UHGV virus genome: UHGV-0315017
Reading direction: 5' to 3' (one strand)
DNA length: 13,309 nucleotides
From: a virus
Of this stretch, positions 3,562 through 11,822 are shown piece by piece. A program made the translations under genes and the position numbers. The stretch's first letter is position 1. The number at the start of each line of letters is the position of its first letter. Below the pieces are notes generated by a model. It had not been told where the DNA came from. It worked only from the letters and a program-made list of their open reading frames with translations, and did not search any database.

Positions 3562-3639
3562 AAACCGCTTGCAAAAAATTATAACGGGGCTGTATGCTTC
3601 CCCCGTCGCCCACATGGCGACCGGGTTTAGCAGCCTGAA

Positions 3640-3683
3640 TACTGTAGCGGACAGCCGCTTATATTCCGATATGCGGTTTTTTT
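3640..3683 (+). terminator. Hairpin plus T-run between the two paralog genes
   Basis: AGCGGACAGCCGCT and CCGC..ATAT/ATATGCGG stems followed by TTTTTTT (3677-3683). Confidence 0.4.
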
Positions 3684-3847
3684 GTGTCCGTAAGCCTACC
3701 CATACCCGCATTATGGCGGGGCGTAACGGGGGAGCCTTTGCGCTCGCTGGTTCCTACAGTGCCAGTCTGCTAACCCTGTTACGTCTCGCCACCCCGTTTA
3801 GCAGCGTAGTAGCGAGACTCCTTAAAATTACTGTAGGAGCCTTTCAC

Positions 3848-4687: not shown

Positions 4688-4987
4688 ATGAAACTTAAAT
4701 ATTCTGGCTTAACTGCCAGTGGCAAAACTCGCACTAAATTCATGCGCGGTGATATTTACCGCGACCAGTACGGCGGCACGGTAATGATTAAGGGCGTGGA
4801 GGAACGGCGCATCACCTACCGTCGTGAAGGCTACGAATATGATTGCGTGATGCCTGTTTATCAGTTTCGGCGTGATTTTTCTCTGGTACAGGCAGCGCCC
4901 CGCAGTAAACCAACCAGCAGGGAGAAAGCACGCGCCAATATTCAGGAAATAAAAAAGATGCTTAACGTATTCAGGGGTAAAAAATGA
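4688..4987 (+). CDS. Hypothetical protein (99 aa) immediately upstream of and coupled to the primase gene
   Basis: GGAGAA SD; stop overlaps the primase start (ATGA at 4984-4987). Confidence 0.55.
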   Translation: MKLKYSGLTASGKTRTKFMRGDIYRDQYGGTVMIKGVEERRITYRREGYEYDCVMPVYQFRRDFSLVQAAPRSKPTSREKARANIQEIKKMLNVFRGKK

Positions 4988-6732
4988 AACTGGCACCGAA
5001 CGTAAAAAAACAACCACGCGGAATAAAACACAAAGACACAGAGGTAATTATTTTCGCGGGTAGTGATGCGTGGGCACATGCAAAACAGTGGCAGGAGCAG
5101 GACGGCCCCGCATCCGGCGATAATGTGCCGCCTGTGTGGCTTGGGCCAAATCAGCTTGCCGAACTTGATGCACTGAAAATTGTTCCGGATGGAAAAAAAC
5201 GCGTAAGGCTGTACCAGGCCGGAGAACTGGATTTGGTGGAGACCAAAAAGATTGGTCAGAAGCTGGCGGCGGCAGATATTCAGGACGCAAATTTTTACCA
5301 CGAAGGAATGCACGTCCAGAAGTGTGAAAACTGGCGGCGCTATCTGAATGCTGAGCGTGAAAATATTGCCGCAGGGCTTACCATGCCGGAGCAGAAAAAT
5401 ACGCAACTGGCACAAATGGCAGACAGTGAGCGCGCGCAGCTGCTTGCCGAGCGCTTTGATGGCGTTTGTGTGCATCAGGAAAGTGAAATCGTTCACGTAT
5501 GGCGCGGCGGGGTATGGTGTCCGGTCAGCACAATGGAACTTAGCCGCGAAATGGTGGCGATCTATTCAGAGCACAGGGCCACTTTCAGCAAGCGCGTAAT
5601 CAATAACGCCGTGGAAGCGTTAAAAGTTATTGCCGAACCAATGGGCGAGCCGTCCGGCGATTTGCTGCCGTTCGCCAATGGTGCGCTTGACCTGAAAACG
5701 GGGGAATTTTCCCCGCACACGCCGGAGAACTGGATCACCACGCACAACGGCATTGAGTACACGCCACCAGCACCTGGGGAGAACATCCGCGATAACGCGC
5801 CAAACTTTCATAAATGGCTTAAGCACGCAGCCGGAAAAGACCCGCGCAAGATGATGCGTATATGTGCCGCGCTGTACATGATTATGGCGAACCGGTACGA
5901 CTGGCAGATGTTTATTGAGGCCACCGGAGACGGCGGGAGCGGTAAAAGTACATTCACGCACATAGCCAGCCTTCTGGCAGGGAAACAGAACACGGTAAGC
6001 GCTGAAATGACATCGCTTGATGATGCTGGTGGACGTGCGCAGGTTGTCGGGAGTCGTCTTATCGTCCTGGCTGACCAGCCGAAATATACAGGCGAAGGAA
6101 CGGGCATCAAGAAAATCACGGGCGGTGACCCCGTGGAAATTAACCCGAAATACGAAAAGCGTTTCACGGCTGTAATCAGGGCGGTGGTGCTGGCGACCAA
6201 CAATAACCCGATGATATTCACCGAACGGGCCGGAGGTGTGGCACGTCGTCGCGTGATTTTCCGTTTCGACAATATCGTCAGTGAGGCCGAAAAAGACAGG
6301 GAGCTACCGGAAAAGATCGCGGCTGAAATCCCTGTCATTATCCGCCGATTGCTGGCGAACTTTACCGACCCTGAGAAGGCACGGGCTTTACTACTGGAAC
6401 AGCGTGACGGTGATGAAGCTCTGGCAATAAAGCAACAGACGGATCCGGTTATTGAGTTTTGCCAGTTCCTGAATTTTCTGGAGGAAGCACGCGGCCTGAT
6501 GATGGGCGGCGGTGGCGATTCAGTGAAGTACACGACCAGGAACAGCCTTTACCGCGTCTATCTGGCGTTTATGGCATACGCAGGCAGGAGCAAACCGCTA
6601 AACGTAAATGACTTTGGCAAGGCTATGAAGCCTGCCGCAAAAGTTTACGGACATGAATATATTACGCGGAAAGTTAAGGGGGTAACGCAGACTAACGCAA
6701 TAACAACAGACGAGTGCGACGCGTTTTTATAA
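4984..6732 (+). CDS. Replication initiator: primase / SF3 (D5-like) helicase, P4 alpha-like C-terminal region
   Basis: 582 aa with Walker A GDGGSGKST and downstream helicase-like motifs; size and position match the pri-rep genes of P4-like and PICI elements. Confidence 0.85.
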   Translation: MKLAPNVKKQPRGIKHKDTEVIIFAGSDAWAHAKQWQEQDGPASGDNVPPVWLGPNQLAELDALKIVPDGKKRVRLYQAGELDLVETKKIGQKLAAADIQDANFYHEGMHVQKCENWRRYLNAERENIAAGLTMPEQKNTQLAQMADSERAQLLAERFDGVCVHQESEIVHVWRGGVWCPVSTMELSREMVAIYSEHRATFSKRVINNAVEALKVIAEPMGEPSGDLLPFANGALDLKTGEFSPHTPENWITTHNGIEYTPPAPGENIRDNAPNFHKWLKHAAGKDPRKMMRICAALYMIMANRYDWQMFIEATGDGGSGKSTFTHIASLLAGKQNTVSAEMTSLDDAGGRAQVVGSRLIVLADQPKYTGEGTGIKKITGGDPVEINPKYEKRFTAVIRAVVLATNNNPMIFTERAGGVARRRVIFRFDNIVSEAEKDRELPEKIAAEIPVIIRRLLANFTDPEKARALLLEQRDGDEALAIKQQTDPVIEFCQFLNFLEEARGLMMGGGGDSVKYTTRNSLYRVYLAFMAYAGRSKPLNVNDFGKAMKPAAKVYGHEYITRKVKGVTQTNAITTDECDAFL

Positions 6733-7020: not shown

Positions 7021-7299
7021 ATGCACACTTCAGGGAAATTTAATAAATCACTCAAAAAACGCAGAGACAGAACAGAACCGAAATATCGCGCGTTAGACAT
7101 TACAGAGCACGCTTTAAAGGTGGCAATCAGAACGATAGACCGCCACGCGGGGGAAGGATACGCGAAAGCACATCCCGAACTGATAAGCGCATTCATGACC
7201 ACGACGGCGGCAAATTTTGCCACGCTGACAGAGCGGGAGATTGCCGAAGCGGAACAGGTAACAACCATCAACGTTAAAACCGGAGAGGTGGAATCATGA
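7021..7299 (+). CDS. Hypothetical protein (92 aa)
   Basis: GAGGGGG upstream of ATG; coupled to the ssb start (ATGA at 7296-7299). Confidence 0.55.
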   Translation: MHTSGKFNKSLKKRRDRTEPKYRALDITEHALKVAIRTIDRHAGEGYAKAHPELISAFMTTTAANFATLTEREIAEAEQVTTINVKTGEVES

Positions 7300-7706
7300 C
7301 AGCACAGATAGCCGCTTACGGGCGGCTAGTGGACGACCCGCAGGTAAAACAGACCAGCAAGGGCACACCGATGACGCTGGCGCGTATGGCGGTATCGTTG
7401 CCATGTAGTCAGGCGCAGGATGGGCAGGCGACGTTATGGCTATCGGTCATCGCATTTGGTAAGCAGGCCGACTTCCTGGCTAAACATCAAAAAGGCGACG
7501 TTGCCAGCGTATCCGGCACGATGCAGGTCAGCCAGTGGACCGGACAGAACGGGGAAACGCGGCAGGGTTATCAGGTTATTGCAGACAGCGTAATCAGTGC
7601 CCGTGCGGCACGTCCTGGCGGGAACAGACGCAAAACCACAGGCACACAGGGTAATCAGCCACCAGCGGGAGACGATGACCCCTACGGTGATGATATTCCG
7701 TTCTGA
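7296..7706 (+). CDS. ssb: Single-stranded DNA-binding protein (compact, 136 aa)
   Basis: OB-fold-like N-terminal region, Gly/Gln/Pro-rich linker and acidic C-terminal tail DDDPYGDDIPF matching the conserved SSB tail (...DDDIPF). Confidence 0.85.
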   Translation: MTAQIAAYGRLVDDPQVKQTSKGTPMTLARMAVSLPCSQAQDGQATLWLSVIAFGKQADFLAKHQKGDVASVSGTMQVSQWTGQNGETRQGYQVIADSVISARAARPGGNRRKTTGTQGNQPPAGDDDPYGDDIPF

Positions 7707-7714
7707 ACGCACAG

Positions 7715-7736
7715 GCCGGAGAAAATCCGGCTTTTT
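7715..7736 (+). terminator. Rho-independent terminator after ssb
   Basis: GCCGGA gaaaa TCCGGC hairpin plus TTTTT. Confidence 0.75.
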
Positions 7737-7742
7737 GTATCC

Positions 7743-7786
7743 AAAAAAAGCCCGATAAGTACAGGAGGAAGCTTATCGGGCTTTTG
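7743..7786. terminator. Second hairpin terminator (bidirectional: A-run upstream, T-run downstream)
   Basis: GCCCGATAAG ... CTTATCGGGC 10-bp stem, 12-nt loop, then TTTT. Confidence 0.6.
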
Positions 7787-7858
7787 CTTACGAGGTTAAC
7801 AGCATGGTGACTACTGTTGCCGTAAATCATTTCATAATTTGCAACGTAACTCAATTTC

Positions 7859-7908
7859 ATTGCGCAAAATGCAATCCTGATTATAATCAGGACTGGATGA
7901 ACATCCAG
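7859..7908 (+). promoter_or_regulatory. Candidate capsid-operon promoter (TTGCGC - 16 bp - TATAAT) embedded in an 18-bp perfect palindrome, followed by a second palindrome
   Basis: TCCTGATTATAATCAGGA (7875-7892) contains a consensus -10 hexamer; CTGGATGAACATCCAG (7893-7908) follows directly; about 35 nt upstream of the ATG at 7944. Confidence 0.5.
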
Positions 7909-7943
7909 TTATGATTTTTTAAGTCAAAGAGGAATTTCTTACT

Positions 7944-9206
7944 ATGGCTGAAGAGAAAAAAGGCGGTGTTTCGGTGTACATAAGCCCCGACATCGTGAAG
8001 GCGCTCAAGGAACGCCACCAGCAGAACGTAAAAGCAGGCATTGCGGCAGGACTTGACCCGCTGGCGATGGTTGAGCCGTCAACAGGCTGGCAGGTACGCG
8101 CCTATTTACGCGCGGCGCTGGGTATGAATCAGGTTCACGGGGGGGGAATAATGACAGTAAAAGCAATGGCACTTAACACTAACCAGCTTTTTGCGTACCT
8201 GAATCGCGAGGATATTGCGGAATTTAAATTCAGTCCGCTGTTTACCACGCTGTTTTTCCCGAACGTGGCGACATTCAGCACGCAAAACATCATGCTGGAT
8301 ACCCTGGACATTGAAGAAGTCACCATGTCGGCGTTTTGTTCGCCTATGGTGGGTAGCCAGGTTCAGCGCGATAAAGGGTACGAAACCAGCACAATCAAAC
8401 CTGGCTACATGAAGCCAAAGCACGAAATCGATCCAACGAAAACCATCATGCGCATGGCTGGAGAAGATCCGGCACAGCTTAACGACCCTACCTATCGCCG
8501 TATGCGCCTGATTACTGGCAATATGCGCCGCCAGATAAACGCCATAAAAGCGCGCGTGGAATGGCTGGCGGTAAATGCGGTAACGACCGGAAAAAACATC
8601 ATTGAGGGCGAAGGCATAGAGCGCTATGAAATCGACTGGAAGATACCGGAAAAAAACATCATAGAGCAGGCCGACGGTAAAAAATGGTCAGAGCAGGACA
8701 AAGAAATCCACGATCCAATCTATGATATCGAACTATACGCCGATCAGGCAGGTTGCCCCGCCAACGTCATGATTATGGGCGCTGAGGTATGGCGAACGTT
8801 ACGCAGCTTTAAAAAATTCCGTGAGCTGTACGATCTTTCCCGTGGTTCAGAGTCCGCCGCAGAGCTGGCATGTAAAAACCTGGGCGAAGTGGTGAGCTTT
8901 AAAGGCTATCTGGGCGATATTGCCCTTATCGTCTATTCCGGCAAATACGCCGACAGTGACGGCAGAGAAAAATATTTCCTTGAGCCTGATTTGCTTGTCC
9001 TGGGCAACACCAACAATAAAGGGCTGGTGGCCTATGGTGCGATTATGGATCAGGACGCAGTAAGAACGGGGGCAACGCAAAACATGTACTACCCGAAAAA
9101 CTGGATTGAGGACGGAGATCCGGCGATTGAGTACGTGCAGACACACAGTGCACCGCAGCCGGTACCGGCAGTTATTCGCAAATTTGTTACCGTCAAAATT
9201 GGTTAA
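7944..9206 (+). CDS. Major capsid protein, lambda gpE-like, with about 70-aa N-terminal extension
   Basis: Long blocks shared with lambda gpE as recalled: KFSPLF..LFF, PGYMKPKHE, EDPAQLNDPTYRRMR, SFKGYLGDIALIVYSGKY, LVLGNT, YPKNW..GDPA. AGAGGA SD before ATG 7944. Confidence 0.88.
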   Translation: MAEEKKGGVSVYISPDIVKALKERHQQNVKAGIAAGLDPLAMVEPSTGWQVRAYLRAALGMNQVHGGGIMTVKAMALNTNQLFAYLNREDIAEFKFSPLFTTLFFPNVATFSTQNIMLDTLDIEEVTMSAFCSPMVGSQVQRDKGYETSTIKPGYMKPKHEIDPTKTIMRMAGEDPAQLNDPTYRRMRLITGNMRRQINAIKARVEWLAVNAVTTGKNIIEGEGIERYEIDWKIPEKNIIEQADGKKWSEQDKEIHDPIYDIELYADQAGCPANVMIMGAEVWRTLRSFKKFRELYDLSRGSESAAELACKNLGEVVSFKGYLGDIALIVYSGKYADSDGREKYFLEPDLLVLGNTNNKGLVAYGAIMDQDAVRTGATQNMYYPKNWIEDGDPAIEYVQTHSAPQPVPAVIRKFVTVKIG

Positions 9207-9217
9207 CGGGGGATTCT

Positions 9218-9553
9218 ATGGACACTCCATACATTGAGTTATTTGCAGGCAGTCAGCAGGTCGCCACGACGCTGGTACATTTTGCCGCTGATGCTGGCTT
9301 TATTCAGGAATTTACCCCGCTGATGCTGGCGGACAATGGCGAGTTTAAGCCGTGGGATGGTAAGGAATCTGGCAAGGCTGTTTATCTGACCTCGTACCCT
9401 GTGGACACGTCAAAGCAGAAATCAGCACAGTGTTACAAGACGGGGATATTCAATATTGCCGCCGTTAACTGGCCTGAGAGCGTCGACACCGATGCGAAAA
9501 AATGCGCCGCCTTTGCGGGTTCCGGCGTATCCGTTCAGCCGCTGGCCCGATAA
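9218..9553 (+). CDS. Head decoration protein, lambda gpD-like
   Basis: 111 aa; TPLML, WDG, YKTGIF, WPE and KK.AAFAG blocks match lambda gpD (110 aa) as recalled; GGGGG SD. Confidence 0.85.
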   Translation: MDTPYIELFAGSQQVATTLVHFAADAGFIQEFTPLMLADNGEFKPWDGKESGKAVYLTSYPVDTSKQKSAQCYKTGIFNIAAVNWPESVDTDAKKCAAFAGSGVSVQPLAR

Positions 9554-9565
9554 GCAGGGGGAACG

Positions 9566-9979
9566 ATGGCAACGAATGAAAGCATCATGACGCTACCGCT
9601 GGCGAGTAAATTTAAAGCCGAAGCGCGGGCAATGGCTGACAGAGGTTTATCAACCTATGAGGCCGTATATCAACTAAACAAACTGGAAGAGCAGGACAAG
9701 CCGCGCGCTGATGCGATTATGGCGCTTCATGAGCATAAAGACTATCAGCCGCTGTTGCGTGCAATGGCAAACGTGCCTTGTATCGATGTTGGTACGGCTA
9801 AAAGCATCCTTAGCATGACCATAGAGCAGGAACGCCAGAAGGTTGCACCAGAGCTTACCGCAGCCTTTGAAAACTTTATGGACATGCACAGCCCGCAAGC
9901 CGTATCAGCTGGCATGGCATACGATGGCAGAAACCAGGGCGATGACGGCGACATCGATCGCATACTGAAAACCATCTGA
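9566..9979 (+). CDS. Hypothetical protein (137 aa) between the decoration gene and cos
   Basis: AGGGGGA SD; acidic C-terminus (QGDDGDIDRILKTI); no family recognised. Confidence 0.6.
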   Translation: MATNESIMTLPLASKFKAEARAMADRGLSTYEAVYQLNKLEEQDKPRADAIMALHEHKDYQPLLRAMANVPCIDVGTAKSILSMTIEQERQKVAPELTAAFENFMDMHSPQAVSAGMAYDGRNQGDDGDIDRILKTI

Positions 9980-9985
9980 GACAAG

Positions 9986-10009
9986 GCCGGAGAAATCCGG
10001 CTTTTTTTT
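9986..10009 (+). terminator. Rho-independent terminator (near-duplicate of the 7715-7736 hairpin)
   Basis: GCCGGA gaaa TCCGGC plus TTTTTTTT. Confidence 0.8.
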
Positions 10010-10010
10010 A

Positions 10011-10086
10011 CGGGTCCTTTCCGGCATATGGACCCGTTACGGGGCGGCGACCTCGCGGTTTTTCGCTATTTATGAGCTTTTTCAGG
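10011..10086 (+). other. Lambda-type cos site X (cosQ-like, cosN, I2-like); cohesive-end 12-mer at 10042-10053
   Basis: ACGGGTCCTTTCCGG...CCGTTACG|GGGCGGCGACCT|CGCGGTTTTTCGCTATTTATGA closely matches the lambda right-end/left-end junction as recalled (…CGGGTCCTTTCCGGTGATCCGACAGGTTACG | GGGCGGCGACCTCGCGGGTTTTCGCTATTTATGAAA). Confidence 0.8.
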
Positions 10087-10874: not shown

Positions 10875-10952
10875 CCAGAAAAATTTTCATAAACAGATAA
10901 AAACCGCGAGGTCGCCGCCCCGTAACGGGCCATAATTCCAGGAAGGACCCGA
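10875..10952 (-). other. Lambda-type cos site Y in inverted orientation; cohesive-end 12-mer at 10909-10920 (minus strand)
   Basis: Reverse complement reads CGGGTCCTTCCTGGAATTATGGCCCGTTACGGGGCGGCGACCTCGCGGTTTTTATCTGTTTATGAAAATTTTTCTGG, about 75 bp near-identical to site X and forming an inverted repeat with it. Confidence 0.8.
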
Positions 10953-11657: not shown

Positions 11658-11790
11658 AGTTAACATGTTAACTGCCTGATGAAGCGTTGTTGTTGATTTT
11701 GTCTTTATGATTCATCTGGTTGCGAGCAAAAAATGTTAACTACCTTTTTGGTAAAAATGTTAACAGGGCAGAGGTTAACATTAACCTGGC
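11658..11790. repeat. Cluster of GTTAAC-containing motifs including the 16-bp palindrome AGTTAACATGTTAACT
   Basis: AGTTAACATGTTAACT, AATGTTAACTACC, AATGTTAACAGGG, GGTTAACATTAACC read directly in non-coding DNA. Confidence 0.4.
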
Positions 11791-11796
11791 GTAAAT

Positions 11797-11822
11797 CCCG
11801 ATATGGTGATCACCATATCGGG
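11797..11822. repeat. 26-bp perfect palindrome CCCGATATGGTGATCACCATATCGGG
   Basis: Read directly; equals its own reverse complement. Confidence 0.6.

Follow-up and report, generated by a model that had tools for sequence, protein, structure and literature searches.

The segment 7860–7910 of the stretch of DNA analysed here (UHGV-0315017, 13,309 nucleotides from a virus; hereafter the window) is probably a σ70 promoter repressed by the host LexA protein, analogous to operon I of the SaPIs, and the evidence suggests that the head genes of a phage satellite would be switched on by DNA damage. This reading draws on the sequence elements present, on their conservation and on a statistical match to LexA boxes, from which the transcription start, the binding of LexA and the SOS inducibility are predicted. 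An earlier, sequence-only reading had proposed that a dimeric protein gates this promoter, and this is indeed the most likely logic, a dyad-symmetric operator being found to adjoin the −10 hexamer.

The satellite and its capsid operon

The window is an E. coli PICI (phage satellite) of the EcCICFT073 family, a family assignment made because its gene set matches that of the prototype EcCICFT073. The genes preceding the head genes are:

673–1932: tyrosine integrase
2429–2635: AlpA/HTH_17 protein (weak match)
4984–6732: D5-type primase
7296–7706: SSB

Located 3′ of the SSB gene are those for a λ gpE-like major capsid protein, a gpD-like decoration protein, a 137-aa protein and a Nu1-like homologue of the small terminase (Rpp). 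EcCICFT073 is the prototype Gram-negative PICI, in which c1499 is the capsid homologue, c1500 the decoration protein and Rpp a TerS homologue; published work accounts for the switch-on of this family by AlpA and for its redirection of packaging through Rpp. EcCICFT073 itself, retrieved from CFT073, carries the same region and the same capsid-operon promoter. The 7700–8160 region was found by megablast in 597 of 5,426 complete E. coli genomes (~11%) with 80–95% identity and, according to the RefSeq annotation of the relatives, the related islands occupy differing chromosomal insertion sites.

The capsid operon, delimited with the help of Pfam, PHROGs and the RefSeq annotation of relatives, and the terminators on its two sides are laid out as follows:

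7713–7733, plus strand: terminator 1, 3′ of the SSB gene; stem GGCCGGAG...CTCCGGCT, then a T-run (terminator scan)
7746–7785, unstranded: terminator 2; A-run, 14-bp perfect arms (7746–7759 and 7772–7785), T-run
7928–7946, plus strand: Shine–Dalgarno AGAGGA (7928–7933) and ATG (7944) of the operon's first gene
7944–9979, plus strand: capsid operon
8151 (ATG) to 9206 (end), plus strand: λ gpE-like major capsid protein (Pfam Phage_cap_E, 8e-50)
9218–9553, plus strand: gpD-like decoration protein (Pfam HDPD, 1e-16)
9566–9979, plus strand: 137-aa protein, phrog_1999
9983–10004: operon-end terminator (terminator scan)

The morphogenesis module is its own transcription unit, with terminators detected by the scan both upstream (7713–7785) and downstream (9983–10004). 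The two upstream terminators had already been noticed in the sequence-only reading, and both are present and conserved in relatives; the second is bidirectional in form, as judged by the inverted-repeat and terminator scans. The promoter is insulated from the early operon by the two terminators, as had been surmised. The GAGGA of the Shine–Dalgarno sequence forms invariant columns in the alignment of relatives (alignment A3). The first ORF encodes 68 aa in relatives and is, in the window, joined in frame to the capsid protein; an RHH fold was not confirmed for the product of this gene. Profiles of head-maturation proteases match the 137-aa protein weakly (6e-09) in their C-terminal part; this region of the profiles corresponds to the λ Nu3 scaffold, so that the protein may be scaffold-like.

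As to the fusion, a run of eight G within 8139–8153 joins the 68-aa ORF to the major capsid protein to yield a product of 420 aa, while relatives read GGGGGTGAATAATG at this place, with a TAA stop overlapping the ATG. The exact fused 420-aa protein is on record in 16 contigs from several sources, which makes the fusion a genuine allele, as opposed to an isolated sequencing error.

A conserved promoter in front of the head genes

The core elements of the promoter are:

7860–7865, plus strand: predicted −35, TTGCGC (three of six matches to TTGACA; TTG kept)
7882–7887, plus strand: predicted −10, TATAAT, consensus, ~57 nt upstream of ATG 7944

TTGCGC, the 16-bp spacer and TATAAT are all present as originally described, save that the description began one base early, at 7859. 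The site was missed by a generic promoter scan because its −35 matches TTGACA at just three of the six positions. The conservation of these elements was followed in 117 related loci from E. coli, Salmonella, Pluralibacter and metagenomes, gathered without using the palindromes as bait; the collection comprises 68 IMG/VR contigs retrieved through the start of the first ORF, contigs with diverged first-ORF homologues (from Salmonella, Pluralibacter and unassigned read assemblies), metagenome contigs and RefSeq loci. All 117 loci have the TTGC of the −35 and a spacer of 16 bp, the −10 reading TATAAT in 108, TAAAAT in eight and TGTAAT in one. The conservation of −35, spacer and −10, together with that of the AGAGGA–ATG located ~45 nt downstream of the promoter, supports the existence of a real σ70 promoter belonging to the capsid operon itself, so that the separate promoter proposed in the sequence-only reading finds its counterpart across the relatives; the predicted transcription start lies at ~7894–7896. 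An extended −10 was considered and discarded, the TG being one base too far upstream. On the minus strand, a promoter making use of the palindromic TATAAT would have a −35 with just three of six matches and has no evident product.

The palindrome downstream of the −10 resembles a LexA operator

The element placed immediately after the −10 is:

7891–7910, unstranded: putative LexA operator (SOS box) GACTGGATGAACATCCAGTT, whose CTG-N10-CAG core is palindrome 2 (7893–7908)

Palindrome 2, CTGGATGAACATCCAG, consists of 7-bp arms (CTGGATG and CATCCAG) around a 2-nt centre (AA) and is thus not a perfect 16-mer; as had been observed, it directly abuts the palindrome over the −10 (palindrome 1), starting at 7893 where the latter ends at 7892. 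The contention that the site is not a LexA box had been based on the absence of CTGT-N8-ACAG, a pattern that proves too strict, since the E. coli box is CTG-N10-CAG, to which palindrome 2 conforms. Eighteen LexA boxes are documented upstream of UV-induced genes, including those of ruvA (CGCTGGATATCTATCCAGCA) and cho (CACTGGATAGATAACCAGCA) (PMC3009722, Table 4), and half-sites of the CTGG...CCAG type occur in both the ruvA and the cho box (PMC3009722). Indeed, the outer 6 + 6 bases of palindrome 2 are those of the ruvA box.

The likeness was quantified with a Lewis-type heterology index whose matrix was derived from these documented boxes and hence from just 18 sites (PMC3009722, Table 4). The index of GACTGGATGAACATCCAGTT is 8.08 on the plus and 8.53 on the minus strand, while the 18 documented boxes range from 0.27 to 9.29 (up to 12.8 in leave-one-out), with dinB (8.29), ftsK (8.39), polB (8.51) and dinG (9.29) having values near 8.08. 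None of 200 Markov-1 random sequences of 13.3 kb reaches 8.08, their minimum being 8.67. Furthermore, across ~80 related loci an index ≤10.5 occurs in essentially two places, namely palindrome 2 and the int–alpA intergenic region, and the box of EcCICFT073 (AACTGGATGAACATCCAGTT, index 6.98) is the sole site below 10 in 49 kb of CFT073 comprising chromosome and lambdoid prophage; in λ there is no LexA-like site below 10.2.

The position of the putative box is likewise what would be expected of a repressor site, in that it begins 5 bp after the −10 and spans the predicted transcription start, an overlap with the promoter start being a usual position for LexA operators. CTG-N10-CAG is found at the position of palindrome 2 in 109 of the 117 loci, CTG and CAG being invariant in all 109. 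The natural variants are instructive. A form with CATACAG (five loci) has a broken stem pair and a restored consensus ACAG, with an index of 5.95; in the variant GATAAAC the innermost pair is broken and the index is 5.2–6.3; and in the Salmonella form, CTGGATAAATATCCAG, stem pairs are broken, the centre is more A/T-rich and the index is lower. Because these stem-breaking variants move towards the LexA consensus, a LexA site is favoured over a mere hairpin.

On the other hand, several observations count against LexA. Both half-sites of palindrome 2 are of the rarer CTGG/CCAG form, and the box is missing from one lineage of eight loci (L079-type), in which the promoter and palindrome 1 persist. 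The Pluralibacter box is displaced by 13 bp in the downstream direction, with T6 immediately behind it, as in a terminator. Finally, the G-U-compatible substitutions found in three loci (L076, L083 and L002) and the changes on both sides at 7890/7911 (T-A, C-G and G-C) would fit an RNA hairpin as well.

The induction of alpA is reported to need a helper and not SOS, so that SOS does not act as the island's master switch. The one SOS RNA-seq found, that of O157:H7 PA20 (PMC5931665), was considered as a source of evidence and set aside; the element found there at the same attachment site is Sakai Sp7 (ECs1574–1599), a cf-PICI with an unrelated capsid promoter and upstream region. Since Sp7 is a different satellite, the lack of induction in that study (PMC5931665) is uninformative with respect to an EcCICFT073-type promoter.

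A second LexA-like box, AGCTGTACAGAAAACCAGTA (1931–1950, index 7.66), is located directly after the stop codon of the integrase; ~35 bp further on there is a TATAAT, in front of a 76-aa ORF (2031–2261). The LexA-like sequences in the int–alpA intergenic region of relatives differ from it, an example being AACTGTACAAAAAACCAGTA (4.68), and some have CAC in place of CAG.

The palindrome over the −10 and the dyad over the −35

Two further symmetric elements accompany the promoter:

7859–7875, unstranded: −35 dyad ATTGCG-N5-TGCAAT (ATTGCA in most relatives; TTGC, GC and AT invariant in alignment A3)
7875–7892, unstranded: palindrome 1, TCCTGATTATAATCAGGA, perfect over 18 bp; conserved core TGATTATAATCA at 7878–7889

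The perfect 18-bp palindrome described around TATAAT does exist; its centre falls at 7883/7884, and the hexamer is thus one base off the exact centre at which it had been placed. Perfect palindromes with arms of at least 9 occur in 6.3% of Markov-1 random windows of equal size, so that the 18-mer by itself is only mildly unusual and constitutes weak evidence; indeed, the window also holds a longer palindrome, centred at 11809. Among the 117 loci the palindrome is perfect over 18 bp in two, over 14 bp in 60 and over 12 bp in 43, its usual conserved form being the 12–14 bp core TGATTATAATCA, while in the Salmonella lineage it is broken, its left arm being lost. An argument founded on the perfect 18 bp, as the sequence-only reading had made it, cannot be maintained, this form being restricted to the window and one other locus. 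At the pair 7877/7890, 47 unique sequences display A-T in 18 cases, C-G in 14 and no pairing in 14. Palindrome 1 is mainly the −10 hexamer within a conserved symmetric surround of 12–14 bp, and it may be a second operator, for another factor. A Fur box was tried and rejected, the 12 of 19 matching positions being equalled at 29 other sites of the window.

These elements bear on the possibility, which we hold to be quite unlikely, that the promoter is governed by a dimeric regulator encoded by the island or by its helper (the product of the first gene, AlpA, PerC or a late regulator of the helper) acting on palindrome 1 and perhaps on the −35 dyad. In keeping with such a regulator, E. coli, Pluralibacter and the L079 lineage all retain the 12–14 bp core of palindrome 1, including loci with TAAAAT as the −10 and loci without a LexA-like box; given TATAAT, a 12-bp palindrome calls for four further matched pairs, which by calculation would arise by chance about once in 256. 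The dyad, read as ATTGCA-N5-TGCAAT, is kept over the −35 in every lineage, those that lost palindrome 1 or 2 included, and no other symmetric element of the region is as widely conserved; a TTGCAAC is also found 21 bp upstream of it, at 7839–7845. In addition, a gene for a PerC-family regulator is located just upstream in many relatives. However, the window has no perC and still keeps the site, no candidate protein could be tied to palindrome 1, the Salmonella lineage has done away with the left arm, all combinations occur at the outer positions (7876/7891 and 7877/7890) and, with a spacing of only ~7 bp, the centres of the half-sites are too near each other for a classical HTH dimer. AlpA was specifically considered and dismissed as the ligand, the alpA promoter region having AAAACGGT repeats and no motif in common with the region of the capsid promoter.

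The link to a helper-encoded activator, which had been put forward together with that to a specific repressor, received no support: neither palindrome is present in λ or in 37 kb of the lambdoid prophage of CFT073 located beside EcCICFT073, and a pattern search likewise showed the −35 dyad to be absent from both. The search of helper genomes that had been recommended, carried out by blastn of 7800–7945 against 50,697 phage records, yielded chance matches only; as to the scans of genome contigs, the protein-based one confirmed nothing and that with the DNA pattern gave three chance matches only.

Hairpins, termination and antitermination

Palindrome 2 forms part of a longer inverted repeat that ends in a T-run:

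7885–7920, plus strand: extended hairpin AATCAGGACTGGATG / CATCCAGTTATGATT; stem 7885–7916 running into T6 (7915–7920), the left arm overlapping the −10 and palindrome 1

An explanation that dispenses with LexA, and that appears unlikely, holds that this hairpin and its U-run are a third intrinsic terminator directed against read-through from the early operon, with palindrome 1 as the anti-terminator hairpin, a role assigned to it since its right arm doubles as the left arm of the terminator. The two hairpins are indeed mutually exclusive, and the site at 7885–7920 is listed by the terminator scan. The fold of the window sequence has −13.4 kcal/mol (z −3.4) and that of the EcCICFT073-type variant, with a perfect 15-bp stem, −19.8 kcal/mol (z −5.4); the cells of the stem are paired in 90.7% of cases against 28–41% in slid controls, and changes on both sides are seen at four pairs, 7890/7911 occurring as U-A, G-C, C-G, G-U and U-G. 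In Pluralibacter T6 follows directly upon the hairpin and everything lies within the predicted transcript. The covariation score of the stem is 0.096 versus 0.083 in shuffles, a value reached by four of 500, and it is to be read with the pair 7890/7911 being unpaired in 22 of the 47 unique sequences, the window included.

Nevertheless, the left arm of the hairpin begins inside the −10 and is thus absent from the RNA made from the capsid promoter, so that the hairpin would act solely on transcripts coming from upstream; for an RNA beginning at 7895 no significant structure is predicted (z −0.3). Two strong terminators are already in place 100–180 bp upstream of the hairpin, and neither sequence reading nor the promoter scan found a convincing upstream promoter that would feed an attenuator. 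In the window, the stem 7885–7916 has few G-C pairs and one mismatch, and the minimum-energy fold consists of two short hairpins with no stem beside the U-run, palindrome 1 competing. Furthermore, the stem-breaking variants shift towards the LexA consensus and the L079 lineage lacks any hairpin. Rfam has no family at 7790–7940. The terminator reading is, for the rest, compatible with that of a LexA operator; a secondary insulating role of the hairpin, as distinct from a conserved function, is plausible.

A terminator placed so close to a promoter also recalls the pR′–tR′ region of λ, where a promoter is followed by a hairpin and a U-run ahead of morphogenesis genes of the same type. Accordingly, one may conceive of a constitutive promoter followed by a terminator that is read through when the Q protein of the helper or a factor of the island modifies RNA polymerase (Q- or AlpA-type antitermination). 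We consider this very improbable. The hairpin and its T-run do lie within 35 nt of a consensus −10, in Pluralibacter the whole terminator is inside the predicted transcript, and a dyad is located within the −35/−10 spacer, comparable to the Q site of λ, the Q protein of which binds in the −35/−10 spacer. In addition, GCAAAATGCAATCCNGA (window 7864–7880) matches at 16 of 17 nt the left arm of λ tR′, downstream of pR′ (44712–44728 in the λ record, L085). Yet in the window and in most relatives the stem of the terminator needs bases upstream of the start site and overlaps the promoter itself, unlike in λ; the homology is confined to the 17-nt match, with no similarity to the pR′ region beyond it. 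Neither a recognisable Q-binding element nor a promoter-proximal, pause-inducing element shared with the late promoter of a helper was found. The tR′ match has a borderline score of 29, the best shuffle reaching 28, and most relatives have a shorter one; it was set aside as probably due to chance. A CII site of λ (TTGC-N6-TTGC) was likewise rejected, the second repeat being out of register.

A model for the LexA-gated promoter and its likeness to known systems

Returning to the preferred reading, that of a promoter under LexA control, the following sequence of events can be envisaged. RNA polymerase with σ70 would use TTGCGC, the 16-bp spacer and TATAAT and start near 7894–7896; in undamaged cells a LexA dimer sitting on palindrome 2, across the start site, would block the promoter. 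Upon DNA damage the activation of RecA would lead to self-cleavage of LexA and hence to expression of the capsid, decoration and scaffold-like genes, and the same signal would induce lambdoid helper prophages. The two upstream terminators would halt read-through from the AlpA-driven early operon and, in many variants, so would the long hairpin with a T-run into which the LexA dyad extends; since read-through would be stopped in this way, expression would depend on the capsid promoter alone.

A more elaborate version of this scheme sees in the 50 bp a module with three inputs, in which the LexA box would double, at the RNA level, as the stem of a terminator against read-through from the early operon and would share its left arm with a LexA-independent operator for a factor of the island or the helper; this operator would be palindrome 1, with a third copy of ATGATT at 7911–7916, and the capsid operon would fire only upon the coincidence of DNA damage and that second signal. 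This is a long shot; if true, it would represent a new regulatory architecture for the satellites of Gram-negative phages.

Among E. coli SOS boxes, those of ruvAB and cho are the closest in kind, having the same 16-bp CTG-N10-CAG framework, CTGG...CCAG half-sites and a heterology score in the same range. They differ in that the four central bases are GAAC in palindrome 2 and ATCT in ruvA, and in that palindrome 2 is a putative site belonging to a phage satellite and not to a DNA-repair gene.

Genes of temperate phages that are controlled by LexA include tum of 186, rstA of CTXφ and the antirepressors of N15 and Gifsy. With these the present case would share a host LexA box on the promoter of a mobile element and a coupling to DNA damage that does without a cleavable phage repressor. 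These phage boxes, however, control small regulators (antirepressors), whereas the putative box of the window fronts structural genes, even if the first ORF is a small protein of 68 aa.

The packaging operon (operon I) of the SaPIs, the pathogenicity islands of Staphylococcus aureus, is LexA-controlled according to Ubeda et al. (2007, Mol Microbiol 65:41), as cited in PMC6092414 and PMC6739421. As there, the morphogenesis/packaging genes of the satellite constitute a separate transcription unit; in the SaPIs it is governed by the SOS repressor of the host, the remaining parts of the island responding to the helper, and here LexA control is predicted. Unlike the SaPIs, the EcCICFT073 family has a Gram-negative host, a different LexA consensus and an activator, AlpA, in place of the repressor Stl; furthermore, the operon of the window encodes λ E/D-like head proteins and the Rpp gene lies beyond its terminator and the cos site. 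Deletion of the capsid homologue c1499 of EcCICFT073 gave no phenotype.

No description of a LexA site in Gram-negative PICIs was found in the literature on EcCICFT073, PICIs, LexA and the SOS box, nor was anything found on the control of the capsid/decoration operon in that on the EcCICFT073-family PICIs; three EcCICFT073 papers contain the word LexA, once each, and in two of these the mention is the entry for Ubeda 2007 in the reference list. If the LexA operator is real, these islands would obey a SaPI-like two-signal logic, in which the helper triggers excision and replication and the morphogenesis genes answer to SOS, and a LexA-gated capsid operon would represent a wiring convergent with that of the SaPIs. 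Since ~11% of complete E. coli genomes carry the region, SOS-inducing antibiotics would then be predicted to induce these capsid genes widely.

Other features of the window and of related islands

A tRNA gene (406–479; Rfam, 54.9 bits) is located just upstream of the integrase and is presumably the attachment site. A C4 antisense RNA is found at 3709–3796 (Rfam, 71.5 bits) with its a1/b1 target at 3592–3641; RNA and target adjoin ORFs named Icd-like by RefSeq, a P1/P7-type immI-like module being thus lodged within a satellite.

The λ-type cosN CGGGGCGGCGACCTCG is present twice, in inverted orientation (10040–10055 on the plus and 10907–10922 on the minus strand), the two copies flanking the Nu1-like rpp gene and having flanks identical over ~30 nt; among the related loci with any cosN, 55 have one copy per orientation. 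Further downstream, four or five repeats of the ATGTTAAC/GTTAAC type occupy 11660–11790, and 3′ of them lies a perfect 26-bp palindrome, CCCGATATGGTGATCACCATATCGGG, centred at 11809, which is the longest of the window.

The attachment site between roxA and phoQ is occupied by different satellites in different strains. In O157:H7 Sakai it harbours Sp7 (L087, 14712–30172), a capsid-forming PICI with an HK97-type capsid, a protease, a portal and TerS/TerL, while in O157:H7 G5295 (L086) and O55:H7 CB9615 the same site holds an island of the λ E/D type. DUF4222, SSB and PerC genes are similarly annotated upstream in both Sakai Sp7 and the E/D-type islands, which suggests that the morphogenesis module is swapped as a cassette downstream of perC.
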